Shown here piece by piece: positions 3,001 to 64,000 of a stretch of 64,000 bases of DNA; the first letter of the stretch is position 1; each line of letters starts with the position of its first letter. The stretch lies in contig OZ237768.1 in assembly GCA_965178125.1 (NCBI GenBank), positions 186,001-250,000 on the forward strand. Direction: 5' to 3'. Position numbers and translations under genes: made by a program. Under the pieces are notes generated by a model that saw only the letters and a list, made by a program, of their open reading frames with translations, did not search any database and was not told the DNA's origin. This stretch comes from Bilabrum cf. latius. Its lineage: Eukaryota.

Positions 3001-6000
3001 GAGGTTGTGCAGCGTGCTAGGCCCGCGAGATGCACCTCTCCTACAGCAGCTGCCCCCCTACGCGCTCGTGTTTGCGCTCTCCGTGTGCAACTTGGAGATG
3101 CACCGCGCCTCGCTGCCCTTGATCGCCAGCAGTGGTGCCACCAGAAGGAGCTGGCACTCGTCACCCACGTTTGTCGGCGTGTACCGCGTGCTGAGGCGCT
3201 GCTGGCCCGGTTCCATTGGACTGCTGCAGCCCATCTCCGGGGTTGACGACCACCCCGCTAGGTTCCTCCTGGCGGCGACCATGAGCAGGATTGCAGACCA
3301 CGTTTTTGCTGGGTTTGCGACCAACATGCACCGGTATCCGTGTGGCCACGAAGGAAGAACTCGGAGCCTAAAGCACCACGTGGCCTTTCTGATCGCCACC
3401 GCTGGTCATAGGTTCGTTACCGTGCGAAGAGCGGCTGCGAGGCATCTGGTGCTGCTTGTAGAGACGTTCCCAGAGCTGCTGTGCGACGAGGATATCATTC
3501 AGGTGCTGCTTGGCACCGTAGATGCGCTCGGGCTCAGGCTTCTAGCGAGCAGCAGGGAAGAGTGGGGAGGCTCCTGGCCACCCATGAGCAGGGTCCCTGG
3601 GGCGCTCTCTACCTCCCAATCGTTCGCCGGGCATCAGGCTACTGTGGACGGGCGCCGGACGGGCTCTCTTGGGGTCAAAGCGGTGCCGCACGGCGTATCT
3701 GTGGATGGCTCGCTGTACGAATCAGAGCGGAATTCAGGGCTCCAGAGCAGGGCCGGTGTCCCGTGGGGCAGCGTGCTGGTGGAGGGGTCGCCCTTCGCAG
3801 TGCAATGCCCCACGACCCGTGAAGCTCTGTCTCTGGTGTTTGCAGATGTGGCAGAGCTGGCCGCGCAGCATCTGTCCCGGGCCCACGCAGTTGCGCCGAG
3901 GAGGCTGGCACAGCTCGCTGCACGCAGGCTTGCTCGCAGGGCTAGCGGCATGCTCCCGCCCACACAGGCCTCCATGAGCATGGGCGATGCCGTGGGACAC
4001 TTTGTCGCGACCCAGGGAGGGCATGCAGGCTCATCTGCGGCCGCGGCGCGGGTGGGTGGCGCGGGCCAGGCGTCAAGCGGAGCACCCGACCCGTTGCTGC
4101 TGCGGGCCCCATCGGATGCGCTCCTCTCGCAACCCCTCGGTTTGGTGAAGCGGCTGGTAGGAGAGAGGGAGCGCGTTGCCAAGACGATCCTCGCGTCGCA
4201 AGGGGGGCGCGTGCTGCGGAGCAGCATGCCGTTCGGGTGGGCAGCAGCGGCACAAGGCGTACCCACACCCGTCTTCTGGAGGCAGTCCTCTCTGTTGGAG
4301 CAAGTCGCGGTGGAGAGGCGATTGCTTGCGGGGTATGGCATGGAGGGAGCTGGGGAGCAGGGAGCGGGGGCCAGGAGTACCAGTTTGGTCACCTTGGGCC
4401 TATCCAGCTCGGTGCTAGCCACCGTTTGGGGCTCGCAGGCCCCTGCAGAATCCATTCTGCCGTCGATCGTGGACAGAGCAATGGCTGTAGGCTAGTACAC
4501 AGGTGCAGCTGGCGAGGTGTCAGTTGGTCAGCACGGCGGAGCTGGCGGTCTGCTCCCACCCAGGTTCGTGGCTCTGGCCGCCATGCCTGCCATGGAGCGC
4601 GCTGCAGCGCACTGCACCTCTCTAGTGGCCAGCTACCCTTCAAATGGCGTGAGAGCAGCCGGAGCCGATGCCCTGGTCACTCGTCCGCTGCGCCGGACGG
4701 ATAGCCAGACCACAATGAGCGACTCTGTGCGAACAGGCACGGCACCGGGCACGGTCACTCGAGCACCCAGCGTGAAGGGGGGCCAGGGATCCGTCGTCGG
4801 CCCCGGGAGGAACCGCCGACAAGCCACTGCAACGGGAGCTGCCTCGGATGAGCAGCTTTTGAAGCGGCTGGTGCTCTCCAGTGCGCCGCCCACTGCAGTT
4901 GGTGTTGCGATGGATAGGACACCCGCGGTCGATAGCCAGCGAGCGCAGCTCCGTGCGAGGGAGGTAGGGATTGTGGAGGGTCTGTTCCGTGCATTTCGCA
5001 CCTCTGGGGTCGGCGCATAGCAGGTGGAACGAAACGCCCGGTCGAGTGCAATTGCTGCTGCCAGTGGGCCGGCAAGCAGTAGCATATACGCCTCGTTCAT
5101 CCGCCAGACGGTTCGCCGGGCCCGCGAGGAGGCCTTGGCCCTGCATGAGACTTTCCTGCGCCGCGCAGGTCTGTCCTTCAGCAGTGCTTCCGGCAATTCA
5201 GCACCGTACGATCAAAGTGAAACCAGTGCCAGCCCTGGGACGGAAAGAGCCCAGGAGTCAGCTATCTCTAGCCCTCGGAGGGGCAGGTCTAGACGGGGTT
5301 CTGTGGCAGCAGCCGGTATCGGCTCGAGCACGAGCTCGGGCATGGCCTCACCAGTAGCACCGGAAGGTCGCGCCGGGTATTCTGGTCTGTTCTCCAGAAT
5401 GGCATTGCTGTCGATCTGCATTCGGAGGGCGGCGCAGAGGAACCGATCGCGCATGCAGGAGCGCACTGCAAGCAAGGCCCTTGAGATCGTGGACCGTCTG
5501 GCTGCGCTGGTCGTTTTCTCGGGTGGGCGAGACGAGAGGGGCCAGGAGCTCTTTGGAGACCCGAAGGAGCACAGCGGGGTAGAATTACTTCGTGAGCAAG
5601 CGCTGGAGCTCCTAGGGTGGATGCCAATGCTGTTGCCCATTCCTGCTGTGTCCTACAGCTGCGCCGATGCGTGGTCTTATGTCGGGGCGAGTGGGGCGAC
5701 TGGCGACCGCCTTGCGATTCTGAAGCGCTCGTGCAGCGCTCTTGCAGCGAGTGCTCATCTCGCAGTCGGGGCGTTCGCAAGCACGACTGCCCGGAGGGCT
5801 GAGGCAGGCGTGGCGGGCATGCAGCAGTCAAGCGCTGGGTCTGCCTCTGCCCCGTCGTCACCGACCGACCTGATGCGCGCCCCTCTATCTGAGGCATCGT
5901 ACAGCAGAGACGTTGGACTCGATGCACTTGCAGCGTCTGCGCAGCCAGTTCGTAGCATGTGTCTGCCTTCTCATGACCTGGACGGGCCGGTGGCTGCTCG

Positions 6001-9000
6001 ACTCCAGTACGCGCCGCCTCACATGCGGGCGGAAGAGGGTCAGGACGTGATTGCGCGGCCGGAGATCCACCGCCCCTGGTTTACGTACATTGAGGAGGAG
6101 CTTAGGGTGGCAGCGCATGCCTGTCCCAAGTCGGTGAGGAGCATCGCATTGGCGCTATCGTCTTGTGCCTAGGAGGGGTGGCGCGTGGAGCAGTCATCGC
6201 AAGGATTTGACGTCGGGATGCGGCTTGTGTTCACTGGCTTGCTGGCCATGCACGCAGAGTACTACAGGCAGCAGGTGGATTTGGGAGGCAACGATCCGGC
6301 AGTCGAGCGCTAGGCCGGCTCTCCGACGGAGGCAGCCGAGCCAGGTTCCAGTGACCATGGCCCGCCCTCTCTCGTGTCATTCGCCGCTCTGGACCAGATC
6401 GGGGTGCTTCCAGTGGCTGGACCTGCCCATCATCGAGCTTCTTTGCCGGCAGATCTGCTGACGACAAGGACCTGCGATGAAGACCGCAGTGCCGCGAGTG
6501 GTGCTGGCATGGACCTGCTGTCGCTGGATGCCCCCAGGACCATCCCAATCTGCTTGAGATCCCAGGCACCCACGGCTCTGCACGCCTCACTCTCCGGTAA
6601 ATCATCATCCCACGGGGCGCTGGTCATGCAGCCGCCCGCCACGTCAAGGGCTGGCTCGGTGGGCGTAGGTCAGGCGGTCAGCTCACCCATCCCTGTCCGC
6701 AGGGTGTCCTCGATCGGGTCAACCACGCGGCTCAAGCACTGGACGTCGGGCTCGGATGAGATGGCAGACTTGCTGGGCCTGCGTCCGGTCCTGTCGCGGC
6801 AAGGGAGCAAAGACCGGAACCAGCTCGCCAGGCGGGGATCGGTCGAGCTCGTGGCCACCCTGCGAGCGCACACAGAGGCCGAGTCTGCGCCTACTGTCGG
6901 CGGGGACGGCGCTTCGATGGGAGAGGCATGGCAGAACCTGCAGCCAGACTGGACATCCGCAAGGACCCAAGGGCATGCAGGTGCTGGGCCGCCTCGCCGT
7001 GGTGGTTACATTTCCCCGACGGCGAACGGGCCCTCTAGATCGACTGCTAGGCGGACTGCGATTGGCGTGGGCCTAGCCGCTGATCTAGGCCGCATGCGAC
7101 ATGAGTTGCTTGACTGCGGACTGCGCCTTTTTGCCGGCCAGCCGGTCTGGCATGAGCCGATCATTGGCGGGAAACGGGTGCGGTAGCTGCATGCATACAT
7201 GGCTGCTGTGGTGCGGCTGCTGTCGCTCGATGCCTGGTTCTTGAGAGCCCAATCCGTGATGGAACGACCAGAGCCAGGTTCATCAAGACGCGGTAGCAAG
7301 TCGTCTTCTATCGGCACCAGAAGGTCAAGCGGACGTCGCTCGTCAGGGGCATGGACTCACTCAGTCATGCCGCCGTCAGCGCAAGTGCTTGCCTCCAATG
7401 TAATCGCAGCTGCCCGTCGCTTTGGCGCGTCTGGACCCCACGAAGACACCGTGCCGCTTGGTGGTGATCACCTGGTGCACCCAGAAGCGACGGGAGCAGT
7501 ACCACCAGCCGTGGATAGACTTGTGCTATCGCTCAATCAGCCTCCTGTACATCCTGGAATGGCGGACGGCTTGCTCGGGCAGCTGGGCAGGCCCTCAGGC
7601 CACTTCAAGGCAGCTCTGAACACCCAATGCAGGCACGCGGCAGAGAGCTCCGACCTTCTGTCCCTGCTGATTGCGCATGAGAGCGACCGCATCGTGGCAT
7701 GGCATAACCCCTGTGGGCACCAAGAGAGGGGCATCCCCGGTCAGGAGGAGGTGTCGCTCGAGGACGCCTGCAGGAGATGTGCAGCCGAGGCCAGATTGGG
7801 GGGAGCGGTGGACGCAGGAGATCTGCACGGTGATATCGGTGGTGAGGGAGCGGCGAGCGGTGCTGGTGCTTCGGGTGGAAGCGCATTCGCATCTCTCGGG
7901 CGTCTGTTGCGGGACGGAGAGTGGGCGGTTCTAGCCAGGTGTGCGGGCAGGCACTCGCAGTCTTTGCTCGCGGCCGTGTGCGGTCGATTCCCCGGCGTGA
8001 CACCGCTGCGAAGGCATGCCGTGGACCACTTGGTGGACGTGTCTCTGGGTTAGGGGAGCGGGAATCACGGTGACATGCCTGCCATGCGGGACCATCGTGC
8101 GGCCGCCATGCTGATGCTTCATCCTGCACTTGCGCTGCGGGCGCGTGGTCAGGACCTGTCAGCAAGGTACTACCGAGCTCTACAATTGCGCAAGTCAATG
8201 CTGTGGGGCGACGAAGCCGCTGGCAGCGGGGCTGGCGGTGTCGAGTCCAGAGGAGATGCTGGACCCGGCGGTGATTTGAAGTCGCATGGAAGCGCTGCCA
8301 GCCTTTCAGCAGGCCAGCAGGATTCGTTACCTGCTGCTGCCACGCATGCTCACCACAGGGAGCCCCGCACCGGTGTGGATCGCCTTGGCATGTCGGTGGC
8401 CCTGGGTCTAGTGGGCCCTGCAAGCGCTCAGTTCGCCGTCAAGAGCACGATCAAGTGTCTCGCGCGCCGTGTGACCGGGCGGCTGCTACGGGCGGTCGGT
8501 CGGGCCCCAGCCACATCCATGGCCACTGCCCTTGGCCTGCTGGCGCGTGTGTCCCACCGGTCAAGCTACCGGTCCTCGCAAACGGCAGCGCCAGGCGTGG
8601 CGGCGTGGACGGCTCGGTCCATTGCCAGCGCTGCGCCGTCGCTGGTCGCCCTGGTGGTGCCGCAGGTCGTGCAGGCGCTGCGGTCGGACACGCACGGGTA
8701 TTCCAGGAAACTTCTGGTGTCTGCCTCCAGCAAGACGGCCATCACGGCGCACCAGGTCCTGTGGGGACTCGCTGCCGAGTCAGAGATCACGGCGGCGACT
8801 GATCCAGATGCGGAAGGAGGCCACGGAGACGCGGCAAGCGCAGGCTCTGGGCATGCGGGGCGCGGTCGAAAAGGAGACGGCAGTGACGCGCACGGCTTTT
8901 AGAAGCAGCTACTTGGCCAGGATTCGCTACCCCGCGCCGCCAATCGCGTGGCTGCCGCAATCCTGGCGTCGCTGGGCAAAGAGGAGCGCGCCTCGTTTCA

Positions 9001-11803
9001 CATACAGTACGCATTCTTTGACAGGGTGACTGACATATCCCGGAGACTCAAGGAAGAGTGCTCATCCAAGCCGGAGCGCAACAAGCACATTGCCACCTGC
9101 CTCAAGCAGCTCTTCCGAAGGGTCAAGGAGACCCGCATTGACGCCGTGAACGCCGCGATTGATGCCATGAAGGAACAGCAGCCAGACCGCACCAAGCAGG
9201 CACTGGTGCTTCGGCACGGTCATCGCCTTCCTGTACCAGGAACTGCGGCCAAGCGAGGAGGAGCAGGGGCGCCAGGGCCCCACGGCAGGAGCAGCAGGTC
9301 GGGCAGCATGGTCCTTCCGTTCATGCAACCTGGTGGCAGCGGGATTGGGATAGGATCTGCCACAGGCGGACCTGCCAGCACCCAGTTTGCAGGGAGCTCT
9401 ACGGGAGGCTCGAACCCCCTCCGTCGTGCATGCTAGGGGCACGACCCTGTCTCCAGAAGGGAGGTCCTTGCGTTCGCTTGGGCTGCGGGGGGCCGGCGGC
9501 AGGCAGTCACCAAGGTGACTGAGGCAGCCGCGGCGGAAGCGGCACTGGCCCAGGGCCATGGCCAGATCGTGCCCGGAAGCGATGGGCACAGGCAGGCAGC
9601 CGGCAACTTGGCGGTGCTGCTGGAGGACCAGCTGCTGGCGCGGCACGGGGGTCTGCCGTCCACCTTCGAACCTCTGCTGTACATGCCCACGCAGCCTTAG
9701 CTTCGCGTGGTCTCGGTCGTGATGGACAGCGGGCGTGCGATGCAGAGTGCAGCCAAGTGCCCCTTCCTGCTGCAGTTCAAGGTTACCCCCTATGCCGGCC
9801 CTCTGATGGAAGAGGGTGGGACTGAGGCAGGAGCTGGTGCTGATCGAGAGACGCCAGCAGGGGGTGCAGTCGTTCGTGGGCCCGGCCCGGGGCCCGTGGT
9901 GGGACTGGCGGACTTGGCCTCGAGTGCCTCCAAGCGGTCCGTGTGGCAGTCGGTCAAATCCACGGGGTCGGTGCTGATGCTCAAGGTCAGAAACAGGATC
10001 AACGCGGCGTCGGCGCACATCAGCGTGGGAACGACGTCGGCTGGTCGCATGATGCGGTCGGCCATGGGGGCAGTGCGGTCGAGGATTTCACGAGTCGGGG
10101 GGCGGGATTCCCAGGCCGTGGAAGAGGCGACGAGGGCGAGGGCAGGCAGCAGTGTGGTTCGGGCATCTGTCGGCTAGGCGCGTGGTTCGGATAGAGACAG
10201 CGACTCTCACGCTGGTCAGGGCCCTAGCATCGACTCGCCCCGTTCTCAGTCCAGGTCCTCGGTCGGCCCTTCGCGCTCTGGCAGCGTGGCGCCTGTGGAG
10301 GGTCTGGTTGGTGACACTGGTACCGGTGCTGGCGCTGGTGCTGGGGCCGGAGAGATCGATGAAGAGGAAGAGGCGTGGCCCTACAGCGCGGAGGCCCGTG
10401 AGCTGCAGCCCGGAGCCAAGGACAGGCAGCGCAGTGGCAGGGCAGCCGGCCCTGCCGAAGGCTCTGTCGGGGTGGAGGTGGAGCAGGGCGGTGGTGGTGC
10501 GAGGGGCGACGTCGGTGCTAGACCACCGCTGGAACTGGACGATGTCGATCTTGCCATTGGCATCGAGGCAGATGGCAATGCGGCGGGCGCGGGAGGCGGG
10601 TTGGGGCAGGGTGGTGTCGCTAGCGGGACAGGGACGTGGTTCGGGGGCAGAAGCAGCGGCAAGCGCGTCGTCGATGAAGCGCAAGACGAGGAAGAAGACG
10701 ACGGCTTCGTTGACAATGCAGCCGTGGATATTGAGGCGCGCGAGAGCTTTGCCAGAGGAAACAAGCGCAGGCAGGATGCCGCGAGGCAGGCAGCGAGTCA
10801 GTACGGCGTGACGAGCGGAAGATCCACCGGGTATGGCCACCGGAGTGGGCGTCGCAGCCGCCGCCGAAGTATGTCAAGGTCAGGCTCCATGGCTGCTGCA
10901 GCTGCAGCCGCGTCTGCAGGTTCTGGCGCAGGAGCCGGGAGCGGCGGAGCCATGCACATGTCCATGTACCGCCCCCTGACGGCGAGCGCAACCGCCGCCT
11001 GCATCTTCAAGGTGTTTGACGACTGCAGGCAGGATGCACTCGCGATTTAGATCCTGCGGGCGCTGCAGGTGCCATTCTCCCAGGCCCGTTGCGGGCTCAG
11101 CCTGACTCCATACTCCGTCATTCCCTCTCGAGTAGGCAGCAAACGGGCTGAAGGGGGCATTATCCAGTGCGTGTCTAACGCCAAGTCCCTCGACGAGATC
11201 GGCAAGGACGGCAACGCCAACCTGTACCACTACTTCCGGCAGAAGTTCGGGAGGGTGGACGGCCCGGCCTTCGAGGAAGCCAGGCGGCAGTTCGCGGGGA
11301 GCATGGCAGGGTACGCAGTGGCGACGTATCTGCTGTGGGTGAAAGACAGGCACAACGGGAACATCATGGTGGACGGGACCGGCCGACTGATCCACATCGA
11401 TTTCGGATTCTTGCTGGGCATCAGCCCGGGGGGCAACCTCGGGTTCGAGCAGGCTCCCTTCAAGCTGACGTCAGACATGGTGCAGATCCTGGGTGGTGAC
11501 CCGGGGACGGACCTATACCAGGGCTTCCAGGAGCAGTGCGGGAGGGCGTTCCTCTCCGCGCGGGAGACAATGCCGGCCATCGAGGCGCTGGTAGGCGGCA
11601 TGGCAGACTCAGGCCTGCCGTGTTACCACTTCCCTGACACGATGGGGAAGCTGCACCAGAGATTCGCGCCGGATGCGGGGCCCAGGGAAGCAGCCAAGGT
11701 GTGGAGGGGCAAGGTGGAGGAGTCGCGCGTGTCTAGCACCACGGAACTGTACGACGGGTTCCAGAAACTGACCCAGGGCATCCACTCGAGTGCCTGGCAG
11801 TGA
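2..11803 (+). CDS. PI4KA: Phosphatidylinositol 4-kinase type III alpha (PI4KA/Stt4-like); 5' end outside the window; >3,900 aa with TAG read as Gln
   Basis: One frame (start mod 3 = 2) is open from base 2 to TGA 11801-11803 apart from 20 TAGs: 188, 842, 956, 1091, 1097, 1658, 1949, 2453, 2855, 4493, 5018, 6170, 6311, 7184, 8051, 8900, 9434, 9698, 10175, 11048. Motifs: VPQVVQALRSD, YMPTQP..SGRAMQSAAKCPFL, IFKVFDDCRQDALAI(TAG)IL, SMAGYAVATYLLWVKDRHNGNIMVD, IHIDFGFLLGISPGGNLGFEQAPFKLT. Confidence 0.93.
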
Positions 11804-11878: not shown

Positions 11879-12128
11879 TCAGCCACACGGCCCATCCATG
11901 ATCAAACTCCCCATGTTGAAGATGCGCCCGATGCGATCCCGCATTGACATGGACCTGGACGCAACATCACACAGGTTGCTGGCCGCGTGGTTCATCAGCC
12001 ACGACTCGAGCGCAGTATTTCGCTTCGCGGTGCGGAATAGCCGCATCTTCGTCTTTCGTGTTGGCTGGCAGCCCGTGGATCGCGCGGCATGCCGCGGCGT
12101 AGTCCTCTTTCATCCCCAGGTGAGCGTG
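11879..12128 (-). pseudogene. Diverged, 5'-truncated and frameshifted copy of the 3' part of orphan gene 12695-13441
   Basis: Aligns by eye with 12695-12968 (e.g. gcccgtggatcgcgcggcatgccgcggcgtagtcctctttcatc). It has a 23-nt frameshifting deletion bounded by CGA microhomology and ends ...DGPCG-TGA at 11881-11879. Confidence 0.75.
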
Positions 12129-12132
12129 TCTA

Positions 12133-12638
12133 ACACACACCACACAGTGGTTTTAACCCAATATTGATCTGGATGCTGCTCGCCGGCTCCGTTGCACGGC
12201 ATGCGGCGCCGCAGCGTCTAGATCTAGACACTCGAGGCCTGCCTCGTTTCAGTGGATGAGTGTGTCACCCAGAAGTACGAAACTGAGATTTACATTCATT
12301 CGTCCGCAGCTCATGGATTGCCCCAGTACAATGCCACCACTGCCGCCGTCCCGGCCAAGACGAACGCTGTGAGCCCCGGCCGAAGCCAGGCCCGCGCCTC
12401 CTCCAAGCCGCAGCAGCACATGCGGCCCGTGGCCAGCAGCCTCTTCCTCTCATCTTCTCCCGCCTGCTCTGCATCTTTCTCTGTCTGCAGCTTCTGTTCC
12501 TGCAGAAGCTCGCCAGCGAGGCCCCACCGGAAGGTCGTGTTCTCCACTTGTGACTCACTCGGCGCCGCAGTGGCGAAGGAAGCGACCAGCAGGGCGCAGC
12601 TGGCGGCCAGGAAGTTGATCGCGGAGAAATGCATGTAG
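12133..12638. repeat. ~505-bp near-identical direct duplicate of 13476-13985 (3' end and downstream flank of the SLC5 gene)
   Basis: Direct comparison shows about 4 substitutions and one 4-nt indel. The ORF track gives near-identical peptides for 12252..12638 and 13599..13985. Confidence 0.95.
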
Positions 12639-12688
12639 TACATGCTGACTACTGCACTAGTTGATTTTGCTGCCAGCAGCCTGATCAT
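12311..12688 (-). pseudogene. Duplicated C-terminal fragment of the SLC5 symporter, as a chimeric 125-aa ORF
   Basis: YMHFSAINFL...VALYWGNP-TGA matches the SLC5 C-terminus apart from one residue, and is preceded by about 17 unrelated codons. Confidence 0.7.
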
Positions 12689-12694
12689 CGTGCA

Positions 12695-13441
12695 TTAACC
12701 ACAGTCGGCCGGTTGTCCCAGACACCTTCCCAGGAGCATGAATCCGATGCGAAGTTGCAGTGGCATCGACCTGGAGGCACGCCCGCACAAGCTGCTTGCC
12801 GCGTGGTTCATCAGCCATGACTCGAGCGCAGCATTTCGCTTCGTAGCTTCCTCCTCAGGAATGTCGCGGTGCGGAATGGCCGCATCTTTATCCCCAGTGT
12901 CGGCTGGCAGCCCGTGGATCGCGCGGCATGCCGCGGCGTAGTCCTCTTTCATCTCCAGGTGAGCGTGCCACACCTTGTCCGTGAGCTCCCTGGGTGAGAA
13001 TCCTGGGTCACCTTCAGTCATCAGATCCGGTGCCACAGCGCCGTCAGCCATTGCAGCAGCCCAGGAACACAGGTACAACTGGTATGACAGAAAACCACCG
13101 AGCTACACCTGGGGCGACAGTGAGCTGCATTTCTCTCGCACAGCCTTTGAGAGCGGACTCCAGTCGTGATCATTCAGTCTGTCTACAGGAGCCCTGTCAT
13201 GCGAGACGTAGATCTAGTCAATCAGGTCATAGGCTGCACTTGATATGCTACACTTCAAGGATTTGCATCGATGAGCTCCTCACTTGAACCAATCAGGACA
13301 TTTGTCAAGTTCACATCTATCTTCATTTTTATTCAAGAGGTCTAGAAGGGTCGGGAACGGTGACGGATCCGGTTCGGAAGCTTTCTCTGCTGCCCCAGTG
13401 GCGGCCCCTGCCCCCTTGTCGGCACCCCCAGCTGAAGCCAT
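12695..13441 (-). CDS. Orphan hypothetical protein, ~218 aa; probable exons 13441-13284 and 13193-12695; the only TAA-terminated model
   Basis: ATG at 13441 (MASAGGADKG...). The in-frame TGA at 13282 overlaps a GTGAGG donor. A 90-nt intron ending GACAG keeps the frame and leaves one TAG (13105). The stop is TAA at 12697-12695. The acceptor choice is inferred. Confidence 0.55.
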
Positions 13442-13475
13442 TTTCGACAGTCTTGCACTTGTCTCGTGGAGTCTT

Positions 13476-13985
13476 ACACACACCACACAGTGGTTTTAAC
13501 CCAATATTGATCTGGATGCTTGCTGCTCGCCGGTTCCGTTGCAAGGCATGCGGCGCCGCAGCGTCTAGATCTAGACACTCGAGGCCTGCCTCGTTTCAGT
13601 GGATGAGTGTGTCACCCAGAAGTACGAAACTGAGATTTACATTCATTCGTCCGCAGCTCATGGATTGCCCCAGTACAATGCCACCACTGCCGCCGTCCCG
13701 GCCAAGACGGACGCTGTGAGCCCCGGCCGAAGCCAGGCCCGCGCCTCCTCCAAGCCGCAGCAGCACATGCGGCCCGTGGCCAGCAGCCTCTTCCTCTCAT
13801 CTTCTCCCGCCTGCTCTGCATCTTTCTCTGTCTGCAGCTTCTGTTCCTGCAGAAGCTCGCCAGCGAGGCCCCACCGGAAGGTCGTGTTCTCCACTTGTGA
13901 CTCACTCGGCGCCGCAGTGGCGAAGGAAGCGACCAGCAGGGCGCAGCTGGCGGCCAGGAAGTTGATCGCTGAGAAATGCATGTAG
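13476..13985. repeat. Source copy of the ~505-bp duplication
   Basis: Near-identical to 12133-12638. Confidence 0.95.
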
Positions 13986-16873
13986 TGCACGCTGAAGAAT
14001 CCTGCGATCCCCCCAGTGATGCCCCCGACGTGATGATCGTCCGCCCCCTGCTCCCGGGTGGCAGCAATCACAATGTCGCCGATGAACCGCGTCAGTCCCA
14101 GGGTCCATCCGACCGCCAGCCCAGCGATCGCGCCCCAGTTGTTGACGCGCCTGGAGCACGCACCCCACACGAACACCGCAGACACCGGCCCCGCGAAATA
14201 TGCCGGCGGTTTCTGCACGTACGCAAACAGCTGGTCTCCCATGAGTGGAATGACAGGCAGCCATAGGATACTCAGGACGCCCATGCCCAGGATGGCGAGG
14301 CGGCCGATCCACACCGTCACGGCCTCAGGGGGTGTGGCGGGCAAGCCGAATAGGGCAGCCGCCGCCGCCTCCTCAGCTGCTTCCAGAACGCCCCCCCCCT
14401 GCTGCTGTGGGGCGAATGCCACCGGAGCTGCAGTAGCTGCGCATGCAGATGCTGCCCCGGTGCCAGCATCCCGCCCATCGCTCCCCTTCTTATCAGCAAT
14501 AGTGGCGCATGCCTTCCCTACCCGTGCCTGCACCATCGAGTCACCTGCCGCAGCCACTTCTACTGACCCTCGCAGCTCCTGTGACATGTCCCGCGCGGGG
14601 AGGCCGGCGCTTCCCGGGTGCTCTTCGCGATCATCATCGCTGCACGATCTATTTAATGCAGCAGCAGTCAATCCACAACCACCCTTGCCCGAGCTGGGAC
14701 CAGTGCCGCGACCCAGCTCCTCATCTACCGCGCTGCCTCTGTCTCCTCCAGGCGCTGCCCTTCCGGGGCTCGTCTGGGCCTGCACCAGCATGGCGGTCTC
14801 GTTGGCCGACCCTGACGACGCCTGTCTGCCCCTGTGAAACGATGCAGAGGTGGATGAAGCGGCCCCTGCCCCGTACAAACCACTGGCATTCAGCTCTAGC
14901 TCTCGCTCATATGCACTACCATCGCCATTGGCCTGGTCACTATCATCACCAGGCACCAAGGTCCCCAGGTCAGCTTGCAGGCTGCCGCCATCTTCTCCCA
15001 TCGAACTGCTCTCCATCGCGCCGCGATCCACCTTGCTTGCATCAACATGCGTTGCGCCCTCCCCCGAGCCTCCCGGCGGCAAAGCACGTCCGTCTCTAGC
15101 CCTGTACCCCGCGCCTGTTGCTCCCCCCTTGCCCCCTCCCTAGCCTAAAGCGCCCCCGCACCCGCCCTGGCAGCTCCCGCAGCATGCCCCCCCGCACCTG
15201 TCCACAGCGTCGTGGCACTCCAAGCACCTGTTCTCGCAAGCCGCCCTGCAGCAGAGACACCTCGAATACACGTCCAGGGCAAATACCGTCCCCGCGCTGT
15301 TGAACACAGAGGCCAGCGAGCTCATGAGGCTGGCGAGCACCGCAGCCAGCACGAGGCCCCTCGCGTGCAGCGGCAGCACGCGGCCGATGAGCCACGGGTA
15401 GGCCCCATCGAACACGATGGGAGGGATGGATTTGGTGGGCAGGAACGAGGGCAGGATACCGTCCTAGGCCATTAGGGAGCGGGCGGCGAGGCCGGGGATG
15501 ACGAGCAAAAAGGGTGGCAGCAGCTTTAGGATGGCAGCGCACAGCGTGCCCACCTCGCCGTGGGCTATGTTGGCTGCTGCCAGTGCCCTCTGCGTGATGA
15601 CCTGGTCGCAGGCCCAGTACCAGATGGCCATGGTTGGCAGCCCAAAGACCATGGCCGTCCATGGGTAGGTCCCGTCATCCACGGGCCTCCAAAGGCTCAT
15701 CCTGTCGTAGCCCTCGTAGGGGGCGGCCACGTCTTGCCACCCAGGCCAGGCGGCACCCATGGTACTTCTCGACGTGCCCGAGGGCGTCGCGGACGAGTTC
15801 CCTCCTGCTCCTGCACCGCCTTCTCCTGCACCTGCGTCCCCATTGCCAGGCCCATCCCCGCAGTACGCGTGGTAGAGCCCTTCAAGGGAATCGTCGTCCA
15901 GGACAGAGACAGCCCCCCCGTCAGGGTCCGTGAAGATGAGCGTCCCGTTCGACAGCTGCCGCGTGGAGTCACACAGCTCCTGCACCCAGTTCGGCGTGTT
16001 GGACCCGCCGCCCGGCCCCGAGCCCCCCTGTCCCCCACCGCCCGTCTGGCCCGCAGAGGTGCCACCAGCAGCGGCGGGTACAGCGTCGGCGTGGTCGCAG
16101 AATCCCGAGAGGTCGTCTCCTGCCCACTCCTGCCAAGTGGGCGCCGGCATGGGGTAGGCCTCTTGGGAGGGGGACATCCTGCCGCTGATCTCGGATATGC
16201 CGCCGCTCTCAATGACGGCGAAGATAAGAATGAGCAATCCACCGGTAAACAGGACGGCCGTCTGCAAAGTCTCGGTCCATACCACTGCTTTGAGGCCGCC
16301 CACCGCGGTGTATCCCAGAGTGAGCAGGATAAGCATCACCACGCTGACCAGTGGGCTCACGGCAGAGCCAGAGACGACCGCAAGAACCAATCCACCCGCG
16401 TACAAGGTGGCCGATATTTTGGTCAGCACGTACAGGACGAGCGATAACGCTACAACACTCTATCGAACACACTCCCCGTATCGAAGCTTGAGATACCCCA
16501 GTGTTGTAGACACGTTGCTTTTCATGTAGACTGGCAGCATCACAAAGGCAAGAAACACTATAGGACCCGTCGCGAACCACTCGAATAAGCTGACTGCCAC
16601 ACCAGAAGAGGCGGCGGTTCCAGTCAATCCAATGAAGTGCTCAGCCCCTATATTGGACATCAGCAGCGAGCACGCCACCATCCACCATACGACACCCTTT
16701 TCAGCCAAGAAGAAACTCGTTTGTTCACCGCTAGACCCTTGCGATCGACCCGCAGACCAAGCCACTCCAATTAAGACGACGAAGTAGACACCAAGCGACA
16801 TCCAGTCAACGAACGAGAAGCGCAGGCTATCAGCGTCGCAAGCACCGTTGGATGATTCAGAATTGCTGCTCAT
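13658..16873 (-). CDS. Sodium:solute symporter (SSF/SLC5, SGLT/SMIT-like), ~1,071 aa
   Basis: Single frame with 3 TAGs (16462, 15466, 15142), ending in TGA. Motifs: FFLA..VVWW..SLLMSNIGAEHFIGLTGTAA, YTAVGGLKAVVWTETLQ, WYWACDQVITQRALAA, LASLMSSLASVFNSAGTVFALDVY, FVWG..SRRVNNWGA. Confidence 0.92.
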
Positions 16874-17075
16874 ATTTAATATTAACAGAGGTGAGGCACT
16901 GCTAGCGCTTGCCTACGGGCGGAAATCAAACGGGCTACGCGCAACCTCGCCGAGGCTGTGTGATGACAGGATCGCGACGGTTGGCACGATGACACGATGA
17001 TGCTGGCAGCCACCAGATGCGTGCCACGCAACGATGGGACTGAATCACCTCATATCAATCGCAATTACAGCAGCG

Positions 17076-18757
17076 TCACTTGCCCTCATCCGCGCTGGCA
17101 CTGGCCCCCTTGCTGCCCCCCTCAGCGGGCGCCGCCTGCTCCTCCTCCAGCTTCCTCGTCTCGGCCACAGTCTGGTCCGCGGTCCCCTTCAGGTACGACC
17201 CGGCCGCCCCAAACATGCTGCCAAGCCCGCCCACAACAGACCTTACGGTGTCGTTCTTCATGGCGGCCTTGCCAACGGAATGGGCAGCGCCCACGGCTGC
17301 CTGCCCCGCCGCCTTGGCTTTCCCGCTCACATCGTACTGCGCGTCAATGCCAGCGATCCCCCCGGCCGCGGACTTGTACAGCCCCTGCCCCATCTCCGTG
17401 AGCCCAAACCTCGCATCGATCGACCTCACACCCCCCTGGATCTTCTGGCTCAGGTCATCGATGGCCTGGCTGACCCCGTACCTCCGGTTAAAGGACTGCA
17501 CGTACACGGTCGCGCCCTCGAGCCCCTTCTTAGTCGTCACATACCCCTGGGCGAGCATCTTTGCGATGGCCTGCTGCGCCTCGCTGTACTTGGTCGCGGG
17601 GGTGGAGGCTGCGGCTGCAGCAGCGCCAGCGCCCGCAGCACCAGCGGCTCCAGCGCCCGAACCGCCGCCAGCCGACGAGGACCCGCCCGCGTCACCGCCG
17701 GCATCCGCGCCCGCGTCCTTCTTGTCAGGATCTTCCGCACCTCCATGAGAAAGAGCTGATGCCAAGAAAACGTGCACGGGTGCTCCGTTGATCTCCTGCT
17801 AGTCCAGCGAGACGGCAGTGGCTGCGGCCGCGAGATCGTGGAAGACTACGATTGCCAATCGCTTCTCCTTGTGCCGCACGTCTGCGATATAAATAGTACA
17901 AAAGAGGGAAACGCATCAACATGGGGGGATCCATCGTCTGGAAGGCTCGAAGAACACAGCACACGTAGCTCTTCGATCCGCTGCGCAACCGTTCTTGCTG
18001 CCTCACCGCTCTGTGTGATGATGCGGGATACCGATCCGCACCGGCCAAATACATCGAGTAGAATCTCTTGAAGCTGTTGCGGCGAATCGCCGGCCGGGAC
18101 GCCGGTGGCCACTACAGCTCTTGGAATTTCTTCTGCCGAGACGAAGCCAGTGTTTCCAGCGGCAGCGCCGCTCCCTCCTGCGGACCCTCCTGAAGCACTC
18201 GCCGCAGCACCAGCTGCTGTGGCATCCGCATCAGAAGGAGCATCTCCAGCACCACTGCCCGATGCAGCAGACGATGAGCCGGCGTCTCCAGCGCCAGTGC
18301 CTCCACCGGAATCGCCGCCGTCGCCCTCCGCGCCAGCAGCCGGCTTCTACGGCGATACTGGACCGAAACCAGGTGTCACCTTGACAGCCTCAGGTTCTCG
18401 CACGGGTTTTCTATGGGATGAGGCGCCAGAGATTGATCCAGTAGACGACGCAGGGGTTCCAGGTGCCGCCGCGGACGCGGGAACCGGGGTAGCAGCGCTT
18501 GGAGTTGTAGGACCGCCAAACCCAGGCACAGATGCAGGTGCAACAGCATGCACGGTAGATCCTTCTTCTATTCCAGCGCCAGCGAGCGACTGGCTTTCGT
18601 TGATCAGGATACCAGCAAACACCAGCGTTGCACTGCTCCACCCCAGCTTAGCTAGAATAACTGCGAGCAGATCCTTGCCATTACTATCACCATCAACCTC
18701 AATGTCAAATTGCGGGGGGCTCTCAAGGCCTTTTGTTGGGACTACGGTAAGTTTCAT
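17076..18757 (-). CDS. Ubiquitin-like domain + RRM + BPA1/Vip1-like C-terminal helical region, ~532 aa; exons 18757-17965 and 17881-17076
   Basis: The N-terminus is UBL-like (MKLTVVP...LVFAGILINESQSLAGAGIEEGSTVHAV). An 83-nt GT-AG intron rebuilds an RRM (LLDVFGRCGSV...LAIVVFHDLAAAATAVSLD(TAG)QEINGAPVHV). This is followed by AIAKMLAQGYV...IDARFGLTE...KAAMKN, resembling plant BPA1/fungal Vip1. It has 2 TAGs (18349, 17801) and ends in TGA. Confidence 0.75.
17882..17964 (-). other. Spliceosomal intron, 83 nt
   Basis: GTGTGC...ATATCGCAG, pyrimidine-rich and low in GC; removal joins the two RRM halves in frame. Confidence 0.8.
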
Positions 18758-18942
18758 TCCTTTCTTTAGACTCCAAGTGTGATGCGGGTTTGTGCTGTTT
18801 CGCGCGTCTTTCCAGGAACAATTCTTTGCTTCATCACCAGAGTTTTGGTTGCGACCGGTAATTGCGACCAAGCCGAACCGACATGATGTCGGGTACTCTT
18901 TTAATATTTTGGAGGGCGGTTAGGCCAAGGGCAACGTTGTTC

Positions 18943-21900
18943 ATGTTTTCATTTTCTGATTCTTCGCAAGGAGCGCGGGCACTGCAGAGTTCGCATGAAT
19001 CATTGAGGGGCTACGAGTAGCGTGCCAGCCTGAAGCAGTTGGAAGCCGATGCCAAGCAGTCAGCACCAGAGAAATCCGCCCAAAGCGCTGACTACGTTCT
19101 GATCTCGCTGGCCAGAATTCACCCGCGCGTGTCGGCAACAGCCTGTTTCTCTCTTGCGGAGTCGTCGTCCCTGCAGGGATTCCAAAGTGCGTGGGACGGT
19201 CGCAGCGACTGGCGCTGCGCACTGCCAGGGACCACCTGGTGTGAAGTGCCAGCTATGATTAGGTTGTTTGCCATACGGCTAGCTAGGGATGCTTTGATGC
19301 AGCGGCATGTACTCAGCCTGCTTTCTGGATATGAGCATCAAGTTGGAGCAGCAGCTGCTGAAGATGCTGGAACGATTATTGTGGATGCCTCTGTGCCAAT
19401 GTGCCCGCTATCCCTAGCAATTATTTCTGCTGCGAGGTGCTGTGGCTATTCCGTTGTGACACCGGGTCTTTCTTCTGCCTCGAGCACGGAGTCGGCACAA
19501 CTTCCGACGGTGGAGGCCTTGGATCTGCGTGGCAGGCAGGTGATTGCAGTCCTCACAAAGGGAAAGGGCCGAACTTCTTCGTGGATCAAGTATTTTCTTA
19601 CGTCATGGAGTGCTAGGCCTGCTCGGGATACATCAAAGTCGAGCACAGAGCGAGCGAGCACGCATCCTGCCAGCATCCCGACCATTTACGAGGTGCCCGA
19701 GGGCTCTCTAGAGGTCGCGCTGAGCAAGGTAGATTTGCCAGAGCACGCGCACCTTGGTATCCCCACGCGCAGCAGCGGGGCTAGGCATGACGGACCTCGG
19801 TCCAATTGCGGAGCAGGTCTGTTTGCTGATGCCTTGCTAGACGTTGCAGCCGGTAACGAAGTCAGCTTTGCAGTCCGCGGCAAGGGCATGGAACATGGTG
19901 CTCGTGAAAGCGCAGAAGCTGAAAGCCTTCCGTTATTATTCGGTGGATCCCACGAAACAAGTGACGCAAGCTCCCCCACTGCTGGCACCATCCGAGTCGA
20001 GGCGGTGCTGCTGCAGGAAGCAGGAATGCCTGCGGTAGGAGCCGCTGACGTTGGACGCGGCACGCCAACCAAGAGGGCAGGCCCCGGCCGCACCACAACC
20101 CGAGGACCTAAGCGCGTGCGAATGGGCAGAGGAGGCGCCTCACCTCCAGGAGGCGCCCTGTAGGCGTCCCACCGGCTGGGGAGGTCGAGGGGCGCTGGCA
20201 GGATGGTCGGTTAGTCTACAAGGCGAGGAGGAGCCGCTGGGGTACTTGACGGTGTGGCGAGTACGGGCAGGTCGGGAGTTGTTCTCGGCAGTAGCGTGGC
20301 CTCGTTTGCTCGCATGGGCGGGCAGCGTCACGAGGAGGTCGAGGAGTCAAAGCACGAGCACGAGCACGAGCACGACCGCAAGGGGGAACCGCTGCTCCAG
20401 CGCGGTGATTTCGGCAGGCACAGGCTAGTGTGCAGGCTGGACCTGCTTGACGACTCCATGGCACCACAGGGGGCAGATCGAGCTGAACCCAAACCCAGTG
20501 CCAGTCCTGAAGTGTGGGTGCAATCAGTTGTGTCTTTGGCTGTGCGCGGCGAACCAACGGACACGAAGGACCTGCGTGCGGTGCAGGCACTTTTGGCGCG
20601 TGACATGCAGGCTGCTGCTCAGCTAGAGGGGAGTGGAGGCATCCGTAGGGGAAGGAAACTCGGTGAAGCGGGCGGGCCCAGCCGTCTAGGACCCGGCAGT
20701 AGGCGCACTAGTGACCACAAAGGAGAAGGTGGGCTGGTGAGCTGGCTGGAGAAGCTGAGCGGGCTTGAGATCGACCGTGATGACGACAGGGGCAAGGCAG
20801 CTTCGGCTGGGCTCTGCCTGCAGTACAGTGCAATCGAGGCTGTGCAGTAGAGGAGCGGGAGAATAGCACAATAGGCCTGGGGCAGGGTGCAGGAGCACCT
20901 GATCGCCAAGACGCAAGGGCAGGATATGCAAAATGTGCCGGCCGGCAGGCTGCAGGCGTTGTTGCATCAGGCCATCCAGCGCGGCTTGGAAGACACTTGG
21001 ACCGGCAGGATCGGCATTCAGCGAGCCTGGGCTGCGGATGCTTCTGCGCATCTCACTTTGCTTGCCATGGCTGCAATGGGTCGCGCGGATGCCGCCGACA
21101 CTCGTACGCTCGAGGTGCCGATGGAGAGCTCGGCAGAAGATGGTGGGTAGCATCCGAAGCAAGCGGGCCTTGAAGCTGATTTCGCGGGGTCAGTTACACG
21201 AAACGACGCTCTACTTGCTCATGGATCGCACAAGGATGCATTATATCATGCGGCCGGCGTGATTGGAGCAGTCGCTGCTGTAAAGGCGTGGCTTGCCGAA
21301 TAGCAGCGGCTGCAGCAGTCGCCGAGCCCGAGGCAGCCGAGAGGCGGAGCATCTGGTCCTGTGAGGCGTCGCATGGAAGTTGACCTATAGGCTGTGCACG
21401 CGATCGAAGTGTTTCTGCAGGTGCCCTCAGGTTTCATGCGACTGGGTCCTGGTGAGCTGGCGGTGTTGACTGGCCTTTGGGCGCTGGGGGTTAGGATTGA
21501 GGTAAGCGGTGGCGATGACAGCGGCCCCCGGGGGGCTACATCAGGCAGGCCGCAGCTCCCTGCGGACGAAGTGCATGGGGTAGATGTGGATGAATGGGGG
21601 CTTGTAGCTGGTGGTGAGGCTGGGCCATTGGCCGCTGGTGGGCGATCACCGACGGGTCCAGAACTCGATGCACCCACCCAGCATCGCCCTTCCCTTATCG
21701 TTCGCATGGGAGGAGACAAGGTGATTCAGGACATCGAGAGTGCCGCTTAGAAGACAGCCTCTGTGTCGTTTACGACGGGTTCAGCGCTGCTGTTCGGTGC
21801 AGCGGCATCGAGACGTGGCGGCGGCGGCGTGTTGGGGTCTATCGTTGGCACGCGGTCGGTTCGATCTGAGCTCCAGCGCGAGGAGACGGTGCACAGCTCG

Positions 21901-24567
21901 ACCACTGGGGAACAGATTGGGAGAGGGCAGGACCAGGACCAGGAGTCGGTTGCAAGTGCATCGCATGACGGTGCCCTGCAGCTGCATGATTTGGATGCAC
22001 TATCAGAAGCGCAAAGCACCAATGGAAATGCTCACGAGGACGACATAGCAGCCCAGGCCGAAGATGGTGAAGGAAGTAAGAGCAGGTCGAGCCGTGCTGC
22101 AGAGCTCGGGTCAAGATCAAGGGGCAGAGGGCCGACAGGTGGACGAGGACAAGGAGGACTGCAGAAGCACGCGCCCGCTGCTGCGACTAGTGCTGCTGCT
22201 GCTGGTGCGGGGGAGCGCCAACAGGGCACCAGCGGTAGGGTGAATGAATCGGACCCCTGGGTCGGTGCAGGAGATGAGGACCTGTTCAGGCAGCTCCCGC
22301 CTAAGCTTCCCGCTCCATCTGCGCAGGAAAAAGTACTTTTATCGAAGAGGCGCGGGGCAGCCGATCCAACAGCGTCGTGGCTGCAGCGTGACGGCAGTCC
22401 TGGTCGGCACGATAGGCAGCAGGATTGCGAGGCAGCAACTGGCGACAGACAGCCGCAGCCATCAAAACACGGCGCACCTCGGCCCACCAGCCCCAGTGCT
22501 TTGCTGAAACGAGCGCGCGAATCGCTCCAGGACAATTCCGCTGCCGAGCCCGATGGGGCCCGCGGCGCACCAAGCGACCACCGCAGCCACAGCCACAGCC
22601 AGCAGCAGCCTCGATGGAGAGACTCTGCCGCAGTAGCCCGTGAGTTGACGAACCCAGCTGCCCACGCCAATCTGAAGGCGAGCGCTTCCCGAAGAGCCAG
22701 CAAGGGTGCCCGCCGGGGCCCGCAGAGGCCGAAGCGCAAGCCAAAGCCCAAGCCTGGCTGGAACGGCTTCTTCATGCGTGGAGATAGCAAGGACGACGCC
22801 GAAGACGCGAGGGCAAAGGCCGCACAGCGGTCCGTGTTCCGTACCGACACGGCCACTCGAGAGCAGTGGAAGGAAAGCTAGAGCCCGCTGAGAGAGAAAC
22901 AGCTTCAGTACCTTCGGAGGAGCAAGCGCGCCCAGGACAGACCTGCCGGGCGGGTCATTCGCAAGCCGCAGCTGCCGCAAGAGGCAAAGAAGAGCTTCCA
23001 CAAGCAGCGGTCCCACAATCAGGGGGGCCGCCACCGAGGAGGTTCCCGCGGGTGTGACGCCGACCTCGATGGCATCGGGGTGCCAGTCGAGGTGGTGCAC
23101 GTGCCTGACGACTCCCAGCAGCGTGTCAGCAGGACAAGCATCCTTAGCTCCTCTGCCCCGCGAGCCATGATAAGAGCCAGGATGCAAAGTACTCCGGGAC
23201 AAGACTCTGTGGCAGTGGCCGCTAATTTCGACTCAATGCATGATGGCGCGCTGGCAGCAAGGGAAAAGACCGATTCAGCAGACGAAACAGTTCGCAACCC
23301 GCGGCAAGTCACTGCATGGCCAACTACATCACTGGACCATGACGTGTCGGGCAAGGACGACCGCACCGTGGGACATGGCGAGGCATCCGCCGGTGCTCCC
23401 GCCCCAGTCGGCTCAGCCCCGCCACTGACCCCACGCCTGACCAAAGGCGACATGCCTCAGGTGTCCCCCTCTTATACACCGTCCAGCTCCCGTGCCGATA
23501 GCCGTGGCGCGCATTTGGGCGATAGCGCCACCTCGAAACACAGCCTCTTTCCGAGCGTGAGGCATACCCAGAGCGTAGAGGACAGCGACGGCAAAGGTGA
23601 GGAGGAGGCGCTGACTCGCGATGGTCAGCCAGAGTCAGGCCGCGAAACGCCTCAGTCCCCTGGTGCAGGTCAGGCGGGCTCGTAGCCGTCCAATGTGGGA
23701 GGATCCTCCGTCGGTGGCACGTCTGCTCGTCCAAGCGGCGTCCCTTCAACGACCGGAATCGATACATAGGCTGCTGCATCGGCCAGCAGTATCTCCCAGC
23801 CTACTGGCCGGTGGCCCTCAGCAGCGCCTGCCCGGCCGTCCATGTACACGGCGCAGCCAGCCACAACGAATGCATCTCCTAGGTATGCGAGCGACCATGG
23901 AGCCCACATCAACGAGATGGGCCTTCTTTCGGAGAGGAAGGTGTCCTTTGCCGCCGCTGTGGACCTGCGCACCTTTGACGGCAGGGCGCCGACTCACGCC
24001 AGCAAGCCGTCGGGTATACAACAACGAGGTAGCGAGCCGTCGGGGGGCGATATGCCAGCTGCGGAGGATGGCAGAGGGCCAGCTCGACCCCAAGCCCCGC
24101 TTGCCAGCAGTGACCGACCGGGGCCAAGGGCCCCTGCCATCATTGGGCAGTTCAAGGGGAGGGCAAGAGGGGCAGAGCCAACCCGCGATCCACGGTCGCA
24201 TGGAGGGAGGGACCAGGGGTCGGAAACCCAGGCAGGGTTCCCATCTGCACCTGCACCCGAGCAGATCATGAATAGCAGCACAGTTCCAACTCCGTCCACA
24301 GAGCAGCACACCGGGCAGCAGCGCAGTGAGCTGCGCGACCTGCAGGCCATGTCTCGCGCTGGCCTGCCCGCATCGCCGCCTCGAGGCTCCAGCCGAGGGC
24401 CGAAGCCAATGCCAGCGGCGACGAAGGATATGGGAATTCGGCTGATTGTAGACGAGCAAGATGTCAAACCGCTGCGGTGGGACCTGCCCAGGACGCCCTC
24501 AGGCGGTTCCGTGTCGAGACTTCTGCGTGCCTATGCGAGCCGAGAGGGAAAGAGCGGGACTGGCTGA
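18943..24567 (+). CDS. Large hypothetical protein, ~1,874 aa, low-complexity C-terminal half
   Basis: One frame runs from ATG 18943 to TGA 24565-24567 with 12 TAGs (19018, 20161, 20212, 20848, 20872, 21148, 21301, 21388, 21748, 22879, 23683, 23767) and no TAA or TGA. No family recognised. Confidence 0.75.
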
Positions 24568-53855: not shown

Positions 53856-53951
53856 GGATGATTGTGTAAACAGATTGGCCTAGATCTACCTGCCACAAAG
53901 TTCCAGTCATTGAAGTTATGCATTTGCGAAGGATGGAACTGGTCCAATCAT

Positions 53952-61100: not shown

Positions 61101-61211
61101 TCAGGTGGTGCCGAGGGGGCGCCAGGAGGCAAGAAGGGTTTCTTCTCTCGGCTCGGCAGCCGGATGTTTGGGAGGGGCGGCGATGGGGACTAGGCGAAGC
61201 CTGGCACATGA
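55110..61211 (+). CDS. RELCH: RELCH/KIAA1468-like Rab11-binding LisH + coiled-coil + HEAT protein, ~1,965 aa; exons 55110-55256, 55348-55751, 55865-61211
   Basis: FLLQEGMLLSALELH(TAG)EI, RIALLEYKLR, LisH EQRALDQLVHSYLV...ASFVDE, HP..SDRRALV...VKRPRPHERAGIL, DDKSGVVRRAV. Two GT-AG introns, 7 TAGs (55143, 55429, 56772, 57810, 59715, 59748, 61191); ends in TGA. Confidence 0.85.
55257..55347 (+). other. Spliceosomal intron, 91 nt
   Basis: AAG|GTATGA...CCCGCAG; frame-consistent. Confidence 0.8.
55752..55864 (+). other. Spliceosomal intron, 113 nt
   Basis: GTGAGA...CCCGCAG; removes an in-frame TGA and joins to the LisH frame. Confidence 0.8.
57579..57628 (+). repeat. 21-bp coding tandem repeat (GAGADTG x2 plus partial)
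   Basis: ggtgcaggtgcagatacagga occurs twice, followed by ggtgcaga. Confidence 0.8.
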
Positions 61212-63811: not shown

Positions 63812-64000
63812 TGCTGTGGCGCGAGCAGATTAGATTTGGCAGACAGATCGTGTCGGGATCTGTGTCACAGTGGGTTCACGCCACCCAATGCCACTACAAT
63901 TGGCTGGCCAATAGCTTCAAGAATCCTGATGAGATTGGCTCGTGCCCAAGACCTGTCCCTGCAGGCGCTGTGCCTTTCGAATGGGTACGCGGAGTCTCCG

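Follow-up and report, generated by a model that had tools for sequence, protein, structure and literature searches.

Locus and gene model

The window analyzed was a 64,000-nucleotide stretch of contig OZ237768.1 (forward-strand positions 186,001 to 250,000) of the GenBank assembly GCA_965178125.1, labelled Bilabrum cf. latius; all coordinates are positions within this window and are collected in Table 1. The element in question is the end of a small lineage-restricted gene, termed the orphan gene, which lies on the minus strand just downstream of an SLC5 transporter gene. Its open reading frame (ORF) ends ...SMPLQLRIG-FMLLGRCLGQPADCG-TAA (...PADCG), with the TAA at 12697-12695. In this window, where TAG is a sense codon, the orphan TAA was probably a true terminator and UAA still a stop. 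This reading is held because of the matching end of a homologous protein (P0001) and the codon counts of the window, and not because of the pseudogene copy of the orphan gene that lies downstream.

Two candidate translation starts were located, an ATG at 13441 and an internal ATG at 13051. When unspliced, the frame from upstream meets a TGA at the donor site of a 90-nt GT..AG segment, and removal of the 90 nt fuses exon 1 and exon 2 in one frame, giving 218 codons plus the TAA with one in-frame TAG. One contig of sequencing run X5 lacked exactly 13194-13283, a segment that both the window and run X1 contain, and all three frames of the segment gave negative codon scores. Codon scores of the ORF were +16.8 in frame for 12698-13051 (-40 and -41 in the other frames) and +1.4 for 13052-13192 (-17 and -14.5); the score of 13052-13192 and that of exon 1 weakly favour both of the pieces that the two-exon model adds. 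We lean towards this model (13441-13284 joined to 13193-12698) as the fairly probable structure of the gene. The absence of 13194-13283 in X5 may reflect the presence or absence of an intron between close strains, or complementary DNA in that run; a sister strain with intron loss is the more likely source of X5 than a transcript.

The TAA and the junction into the SLC5 piece behind it were recovered in contigs of all four runs searched, from 3 studies, with no other letter at 12695-12697. The best-matching run may be the source sample, so that this support is not fully independent, and all four runs were represented by contigs of DNA-like character, no RNA data set being listed for the stretch. 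An assembly artefact is unlikely.

No match to a Pfam family was obtained for the orphan protein, and an AlphaFold2 model built from a 3-row alignment was poor (mean predicted local distance difference test score, pLDDT, 50.3; predicted template modelling score, pTM, 0.26). A stretch of ∼30 residues at 12770-12860 (minus strand; residues ∼KRNAALESWLMNHAASSLCG) matched the repeat motif of P0005 and P0006 with E ∼2e-17 summed over the repeats. These bacterial-type repeat proteins (1,801 and 1,740 residues) match only through the ∼30-residue motif NAALE.WL.N.AAS.LCG, present in 9-10 repeats, and were rejected as relatives. P0007, a low-complexity repeat protein matched by composition, was likewise not accepted as a relative.

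TAG as a sense codon

Under the standard stops the long genes of the window were broken up. With TGA as the sole stop, ORFs of 3,934, 1,129, 1,988, 7,336 and 1,849 codons were obtained, and every codon that interrupts these five ORFs under the standard stops is TAG. In-frame TAG occurs 68 times in the 16,150 codons of these five giant ORFs. That it is a sense codon in the window follows from alignments with solved SGLT1, PI4KA and RPF1 homologues, which continue across TAG codons; for the SLC5 product, matched to SGLT1 at E 3.8e-81, the alignments cross two of its TAG codons.

TAG probably encodes glutamine, on the basis of two alignment columns and the context of repeats. One TAG stands opposite the conserved Q within the human PI4KA motif DDCRQD.LA.Q. 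In the RPF1 column that contains the TAG, 8 of 14 homologues have Q, while two have E, two A, one M and one V, and further TAG codons were found within Q-like repeats (such as QSxSxPQQQ, LxPxP and MSxS/MSQS). NCBI translation table 15 (TAG = Q; TAA and TGA stop) reads every long ORF of the window correctly, and the code is probably of this type. No TAG was seen to terminate a gene, the RPF1 and orphan ends being the two that were compared with homologues.

The TAG at 61191-61193 (plus strand), codon 1843 of the gene at 55665-61211, stands only 5 codons before the presumed terminal TGA (...GDGD-TAG-AKPGT-TGA).

The database copy of the RPF1 of this organism (P0011, 99% identical) begins only after the TAG, and the gene caller of that library thus appears to use the standard stops. 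Standard-code gene callers would cut the genes of this organism at every TAG, and NCBI table 6 would read through TAA.

Codon counts and gene ends

Because TGA alone was treated as a stop when the five ORFs were delimited, their selection was unbiased against TAA. Within their 16,150 codons no in-frame TAA was found, and the other two frames held 26 and 18 TAA. TGA occurred 5 times in frame, always as the terminal codon, and 207 and 246 times in the other frames. The number of TAA to be expected if TAA were synonymous with TAG was estimated from the share of A among third-position purines, A/(A+G), which was 0.161 for CAR (CAA/CAG) and 0.122 for CTR (CTA/CTG) codons. On these shares the 68 TAG predict ∼13 (CAR) or ∼9 (CTR) TAA, and the probability of observing none is ∼2e-6 to 8e-5. 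Position-specific base frequencies predict 57 TAA. For this count 86 codons, containing three TAA, were trimmed from the 5′ end of the ORF at 18604-24567; given their overlap with the beginning of a divergent gene on the opposite strand, they were judged not to belong to the coding part. Elsewhere, TGA-only ORFs of coding appearance contained no TAA except at their 5′ edges. In the TGA-only ORF at 61521-63875, the TAA at 63747-63749 lies upstream of the first Met in a region of negative codon score.

By our own gene count, 12 of the 13 gene ends in the window are TGA and one is TAA, in agreement with the original prediction, which gave TGA for the 12 other ends. The TGA of RPF1 follows the column in which all of its homologues compared (14 of 14) also end, and on this comparison TGA is a bona fide stop. 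Of the 36 ORFs of at least 100 codons that end in TAA, only the orphan had a clearly positive codon score, and in this sense the earlier description of the locus as the only positive local evidence on UAA was apt.

Set against formal codes, the window has the in-frame UAG in conserved coding sequence, with no in-frame UAA or UGA, that marks a code of table 15 type, and UAA at a coding end that coincides with that of an orthologue was found for the orphan gene only. In-frame sense UAA beside UAG, the mark of table 6, was absent (0 TAA vs 68 TAG). As for context-dependent codes, in which a terminator also serves as sense in frame, neither TAA nor TGA was used in this way in the five ORFs.

A homologue with the same end

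P0001 was the only match to the orphan protein in a search of 5.77 billion proteins, and the only real relative among 4 matches in a second search (1.84 billion representatives). It has 121 residues, is 66% identical to the orphan protein, and ends in the last alignment column of the orphan (...DCG), its tail FMLSGRYLGLPTDCG being identical to FMLLGRCLGQPADCG at 11 of 15 positions. From the conserved end and the tail identity, the orphan tail is coding and under constraint at the protein level, and the end of the protein predates the split of the two species. It is also older than the very recent arrival (∼99% identity) of the SLC5 fragment now behind it. DNA of the P0001 gene was sought in metagenome contigs, where 153 pattern matches were obtained and none was confirmed.

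The duplicated segment behind the TAA

Downstream of the orphan TAA, direct repeats D1-D4 follow in the same order as upstream, with one copy carrying disabling lesions, as is characteristic of a tandem duplication with a decayed gene copy. The region 11879-12697 is the second unit of such a duplication, made up of a spacer, an SLC5 copy of ∼99% identity with its 3′ flank, and an older truncated fragment of the orphan gene. The original prediction had placed an in-frame SLC5 fragment behind the TAA, and the frame is indeed open to the TGA at 12313-12311, running for 127 codons (ORF 12311-12694) through the copy of the SLC5 C-terminus.

The second copy of the orphan gene (copy 2) is not a gene but a 5′-truncated, frameshifted pseudogene. 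It has no equivalent of 12967-13470 (504 nt), which includes both candidate start codons, and a joint 12966>13471 that matches this 504-nt gap was seen in runs X1 and X5. A 23-nt deletion shifts the frame, leaving the parts of copy 2 before and after it in different frames. The event is assigned to copy 2 as a deletion because P0001 keeps the residues of the 23-nt segment. When the copies were compared over 67 codons, 28 differences were counted (9, 7 and 12 at the three codon positions), and the changed codons comprised 10 synonymous and 12 non-synonymous cases. Identity between the copies declines along the fragment, from 65/66 nt (98%) through 78%, 89% and 69% to 40% in the tail.

Identity between 11927-12663 and 12743-14010 is uneven. 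It stands at ∼99% over the SLC5 piece, the flank and the first 22 orphan codons, then at 69-89% and finally at ∼40%, a pattern indicating either two events that differ in age or a tract of recent gene conversion.

Weighing the alternatives

The original prediction had argued that the two copies end at the same aligned position, with TAA in one and TGA in the other, and that the two codons are interchangeable terminators. Its endings (...PADCG-TAA at 12697-12695 and ...DGPCG-TGA at 11881-11879, each RIG plus 15 codons) were exact in sequence and coordinates, and both tails are exactly 15 codons long after the shared RIG. Clear homology between the copies stops at RIG, however. Over the 48-nt tails, aligned without gaps, 19/48 positions match, a value reached by 156 of 5000 shuffles, and the gapped tail score was reached by 92 of 5000. 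The excess likeness lies entirely in the last 9 nt (TGTGGYTRA; TGTGGTTAA vs TGTGGCTGA, 7/9); with these removed the match falls to 12/39, which 1438 of 5000 shuffles reached. Beyond the two stops, the next 60 nt agree at 14/60 positions, and in the MAFFT alignment, which has gaps in the tail, the TAA is not placed opposite that TGA. The claim of one aligned position is thus not borne out as worded, and the equal length and the 7/9 match are, as sequence evidence, suggestive but marginal. That the stops descend from one ancestral codon position, a single TGA<->TAA transition apart, and mark interchangeable terminators is plausible but on balance somewhat doubtful. The equal tails and the shuffle results above favour it, as does the ending of both copies in Cys-Gly-stop, with Cys-Gly also in P0001; moreover, at two residues absent from copy 1 (N in S/E-N-LC and V in C-x-V-AS), copy 2 agrees with P0001, and it may keep ancestral states. 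Against it, besides the loss of signal without the last 9 nt and the unpaired stops in MAFFT, identity drops steadily towards the end of the tail, from 98% to 40%, and copy 2 is frameshifted and 5′-truncated, so that its TGA may be a chance stop. Since copy 2 is a frameshifted pseudogene with a barely alignable tail, nothing maintains its TGA as a terminator; at best that TGA would be a relic of the ancestral stop under no selection. Relic or chance stop, it says nothing on how ribosomes treat TAA. What stands of the original prediction is its conclusion that UAA is still a stop, carried by the end of P0001 and by 0 TAA vs 68 TAG; the argument from the paralogue is weak, given the pseudogene and its tail.

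Three further readings bear on the TAA itself. It is unlikely that TAA has almost vanished under GC pressure and is now neither stop nor sense, with stalling or partial read-through into the SLC5 fragment. The absence of in-frame TAA, its use at only 1 of 13 gene ends and the 127 open codons behind it, which share the frame of a genuine protein segment, would suit such a state, as would the T that follows the orphan stop. T after a stop is not the strongest termination context in eukaryotes. P0001 nevertheless ends at the same residue, off-frame TAA is not rare (26 and 18), and the SLC5 fragment, at ∼99% identity, is very recent, so that an extension into it would be new and unselected. Less probable still, that the orphan ORF is no gene, both copies being duplicated non-coding DNA with meaningless stops, would fit the lack of a Pfam match, the poor structure model (mean pLDDT 50), the single homologue and the listing of no RNA data set. 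That homologue is 66% identical, of the same length and with the same end; the codon score is +16.8 in frame vs about -40 in both other frames, the differences between the copies peak at third codon positions (10 synonymous and 12 non-synonymous changes), and one strain lacks a 90-nt GT..AG segment whose removal keeps the frame. The least probable reading, for which we see hardly any room, makes TAA a sense codon like TAG, both glutamine, rare through GC bias, with the protein running on to the TGA at 12311. Behind the TAA the frame does stay open, and in most lineages UAA shares the meaning of a reassigned UAG, according to the discussion of such codes in PMC5304391; but no in-frame TAA was found where ∼9-13 were expected from 68 TAG, the homologue ends at the last residue of the orphan, and the extension would consist of spacer and a recently duplicated transporter fragment.

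Several points weigh against termination at the orphan TAA or against parts of the model built around it. If TAA were simply unused, its lack in coding frames would be just as much expected, and 1 of 13 terminators is a low share. Read-through into the 127 open codons is possible on sequence alone. The positive support for UAA comes from one gene and one homologue, and P0001 is known as a protein; if its stop is also TAA, the comparison speaks for a conserved end but not for an interchange of TAA and TGA. Homology lends no support to the upstream exon, since the P0001 protein begins at the internal Met, and the even, DNA-like depth of X5 means that the intron rests on a strain difference and not on a transcript. 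As for glutamine, three other TAG positions pair with V, D/E or E in solved relatives, at poorly conserved sites. With these points taken into account, termination at the orphan TAA is still the reading that we prefer.

Gene content and packing

The window has a GC content of ∼65%. Besides the genes listed in Table 1 it carries Alg14, RPF1/Brix and an EGF-repeat protein. Genes are densely packed, the stops of convergent pairs lying 75-160 nt apart, so that the 3′ ends of these pairs must overlap or nearly touch. Matches of RPF1 that carry names were ∼50% identical and came mostly from stramenopiles, with Symbiodinium, chytrids and animals in addition.

Conserved proteins (the Raptor homologue, PI 4-kinase and SLC5) owe a huge increase in size to low-complexity inserts in which G, A, S, Q and R abound, and their genes have no introns. 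A 125-nt intron at 17882-18006 (minus strand) was deduced from a change of frame in the gene at 17076-18757, which encodes a ubiquitin-like N-terminus and an RRM-like stretch; its donor GTGAGG is that of the orphan-gene intron and its acceptor is CGCAG.

Table 1. Features of the window around the orphan gene and elsewhere, by position.
Feature	Position	Strand	Remarks
PI 4-kinase	2-11803	plus	eukaryotic gene, cut by window edge; >3,933 codons
Example in-frame TAG	11048-11050	plus	
Copy 2 tail + TGA	11926-11879	minus	...SMSMRDRIG-RIFNMGSLIMDGPCG-TGA (...DGPCG), TGA at 11881-11879
Degenerate orphan fragment (copy 2 body)	12128-11927	minus	23-nt deletion between 12027 and 12026
Second SLC5 3′ flank	12310-12129	minus	repeats D1, D4 98-99% identical; TGTAA 19 nt after TGA
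Second SLC5 C-terminus, last ∼115 codons	12663-12311	minus	99% identical to 13658-14010; in frame with orphan ORF, TGA at 12313-12311
Spacer between TAA and SLC5 fragment	12694-12664	minus	no counterpart in either copy
TAA of orphan gene	12695-12697	minus	in frame with ...PADCG; P0001 ends at same residue
Orphan tail + TAA	12742-12695	minus	
Orphan body	12967-12743	minus	
Orphan-gene exon 2	12698-13193	minus	last 118 codons MADGAV...PADCG; 15-codon tail after RIG = 12698-12742
In-frame TAG in exon 2 of two-exon model	13103-13105	minus	translation of spliced model; ORF boundary at 13102
90-nt GT..AG intron	13194-13283	minus	donor CAA/GTGAGG, acceptor GACAG/G; in-frame TGA at 5′ end
Orphan-gene exon 1 (MASAGG...DWFK)	13284-13441	minus	ATG at 13441; codon score +4.1 vs -4.1, -30.9
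Unique stretch with 5′ part of orphan gene	13470-12968	minus	
SLC5 3′ flank (first)	13657-13471	minus	
SLC5 C-terminus (first)	∼14010-13658	minus	
Parent SLC5 gene (sodium:solute symporter, SLC5/SGLT-type)	13658-16873	minus	1071 codons, three in-frame TAG, TGA end; Pfam SSF
Example in-frame TAG	16460-16462, 15464-15466, 15140-15142	minus	
Raptor homologue	29826-51833	plus	7,335 codons
TGTAA after stop	13635-13639, 17063-17067	minus	
TGTAA after stop	53865-53869	plus	
Convergent stop pairs	11803/11879, 24567/24662, 51833/51994, 53855/53952		

Decoding and 3′ ends

By analogy with the described codes in which UAG alone is reassigned, eRF1 would have kept recognition of UAA and UGA and lost that of UAG, and UAG would be read by a transfer RNA (tRNA) with anticodon CUA, probably tRNA-Gln. 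No tRNA gene was found in the 64-kb window. At the 3′ side, 3 of 13 genes have TGTAA within 20 nt of the stop, at distances of 9-19 nt (∼0.04 expected by chance). The motif occurs only 17 times in the whole window on both strands, and is a candidate poly(A) signal. TGTAA is a poly(A) signal in green algae. It occurs again in the duplicated SLC5 flank near 12290, 403 nt after the orphan TAA, and the orphan mRNA may take this duplicated flank as its own 3′ end.

Comparison with known codes

Nearly every translation system gives UAG and UAA a single meaning, and few cases of a split have been described, in two lineages in 2017 and among phyllopharyngean ciliates, for some of them, in 2024. Such cases show that the eukaryotic release factor can distinguish UAG from UAA. 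To label a code as UAG sense and UAA stop, positive evidence of termination at UAA is needed, of which the orphan locus is the sole source in 64 kb; the orphan TAA is in this respect a supporting detail of a larger finding, the reassignment of TAG. NCBI table 15 is a formal table and not an organism, and comparison was made with the organisms for which codes of this kind have been described. PMC6733595 was set aside as it concerns plastid codes only.

In the fornicate Iotanema spirale, the account of stop codon usage by Panek et al. (2017, PMC5304391) gives UAG as Gln and UAA and UGA as stops, with UAA at 104 of 119 ends. The window resembles I. spirale in its sense UAG, probably glutamine, in the lack of in-frame UAA and UGA, and in that ends were judged by comparison with orthologues. 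Unlike in I. spirale, where UAA is the main terminator, TGA stands at 12 of 13 ends and TAA at one; GC content is ∼65%, and a single 64-kb window is set beside a transcriptome. For the rhizarian exLh, the same account gives UAG as Leu and, of 71 ends, UAA at 56 and UGA at 15. There too the meanings of UAG and UAA are decoupled, and the exLh sequence, as that account relates, was first noticed under the label of another organism; the window sequence occurs under three organism labels. Unlike in exLh, TAG in the window pairs with Gln and not Leu at two informative columns, and TGA is preferred.

Among ciliates, McGowan et al. (2024, PMC11687900) describe UAG as Gln in Hartmannula sinica as well as in Trochilia petrani and as Leu in a TARA phyllopharyngean clade. 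As those species are portrayed there, they share with the window the reassignment of UAG alone, UAA being kept as a stop; unlike in these phyllopharyngeans, the best named RPF1 relatives of the window are stramenopiles (∼50% identity) and TGA dominates. Condylostoma and Blastocrithidia, in the descriptions given in PMC5304391 and PMC12153298, have context-dependent codes in which one codon both codes and terminates. A standard stop is used as sense in the window as it is in them; unlike in them, TAA never codes (0/16,150) and TAG was not seen terminating.

Codes with UAG sense and UAA stop are already known as a kind, and the present case may be new. A full-text literature search found, within the literature searched, no GC-rich eukaryote with UAG as Gln and UAA as stop. 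The window could, tentatively, represent an undescribed case in which a GC-rich eukaryote that is neither a ciliate, a fornicate nor a rhizarian has independently split the meanings of UAG and UAA, and the first in which UGA is the working terminator and UAA nearly gone. If this is true, capture of UAG would not require an AT-rich background, where UAA dominates and UAG is rare. The published cases all prefer UAA, and a GC-rich case that prefers UGA would extend the range of conditions that permit reassignment of UAG alone.

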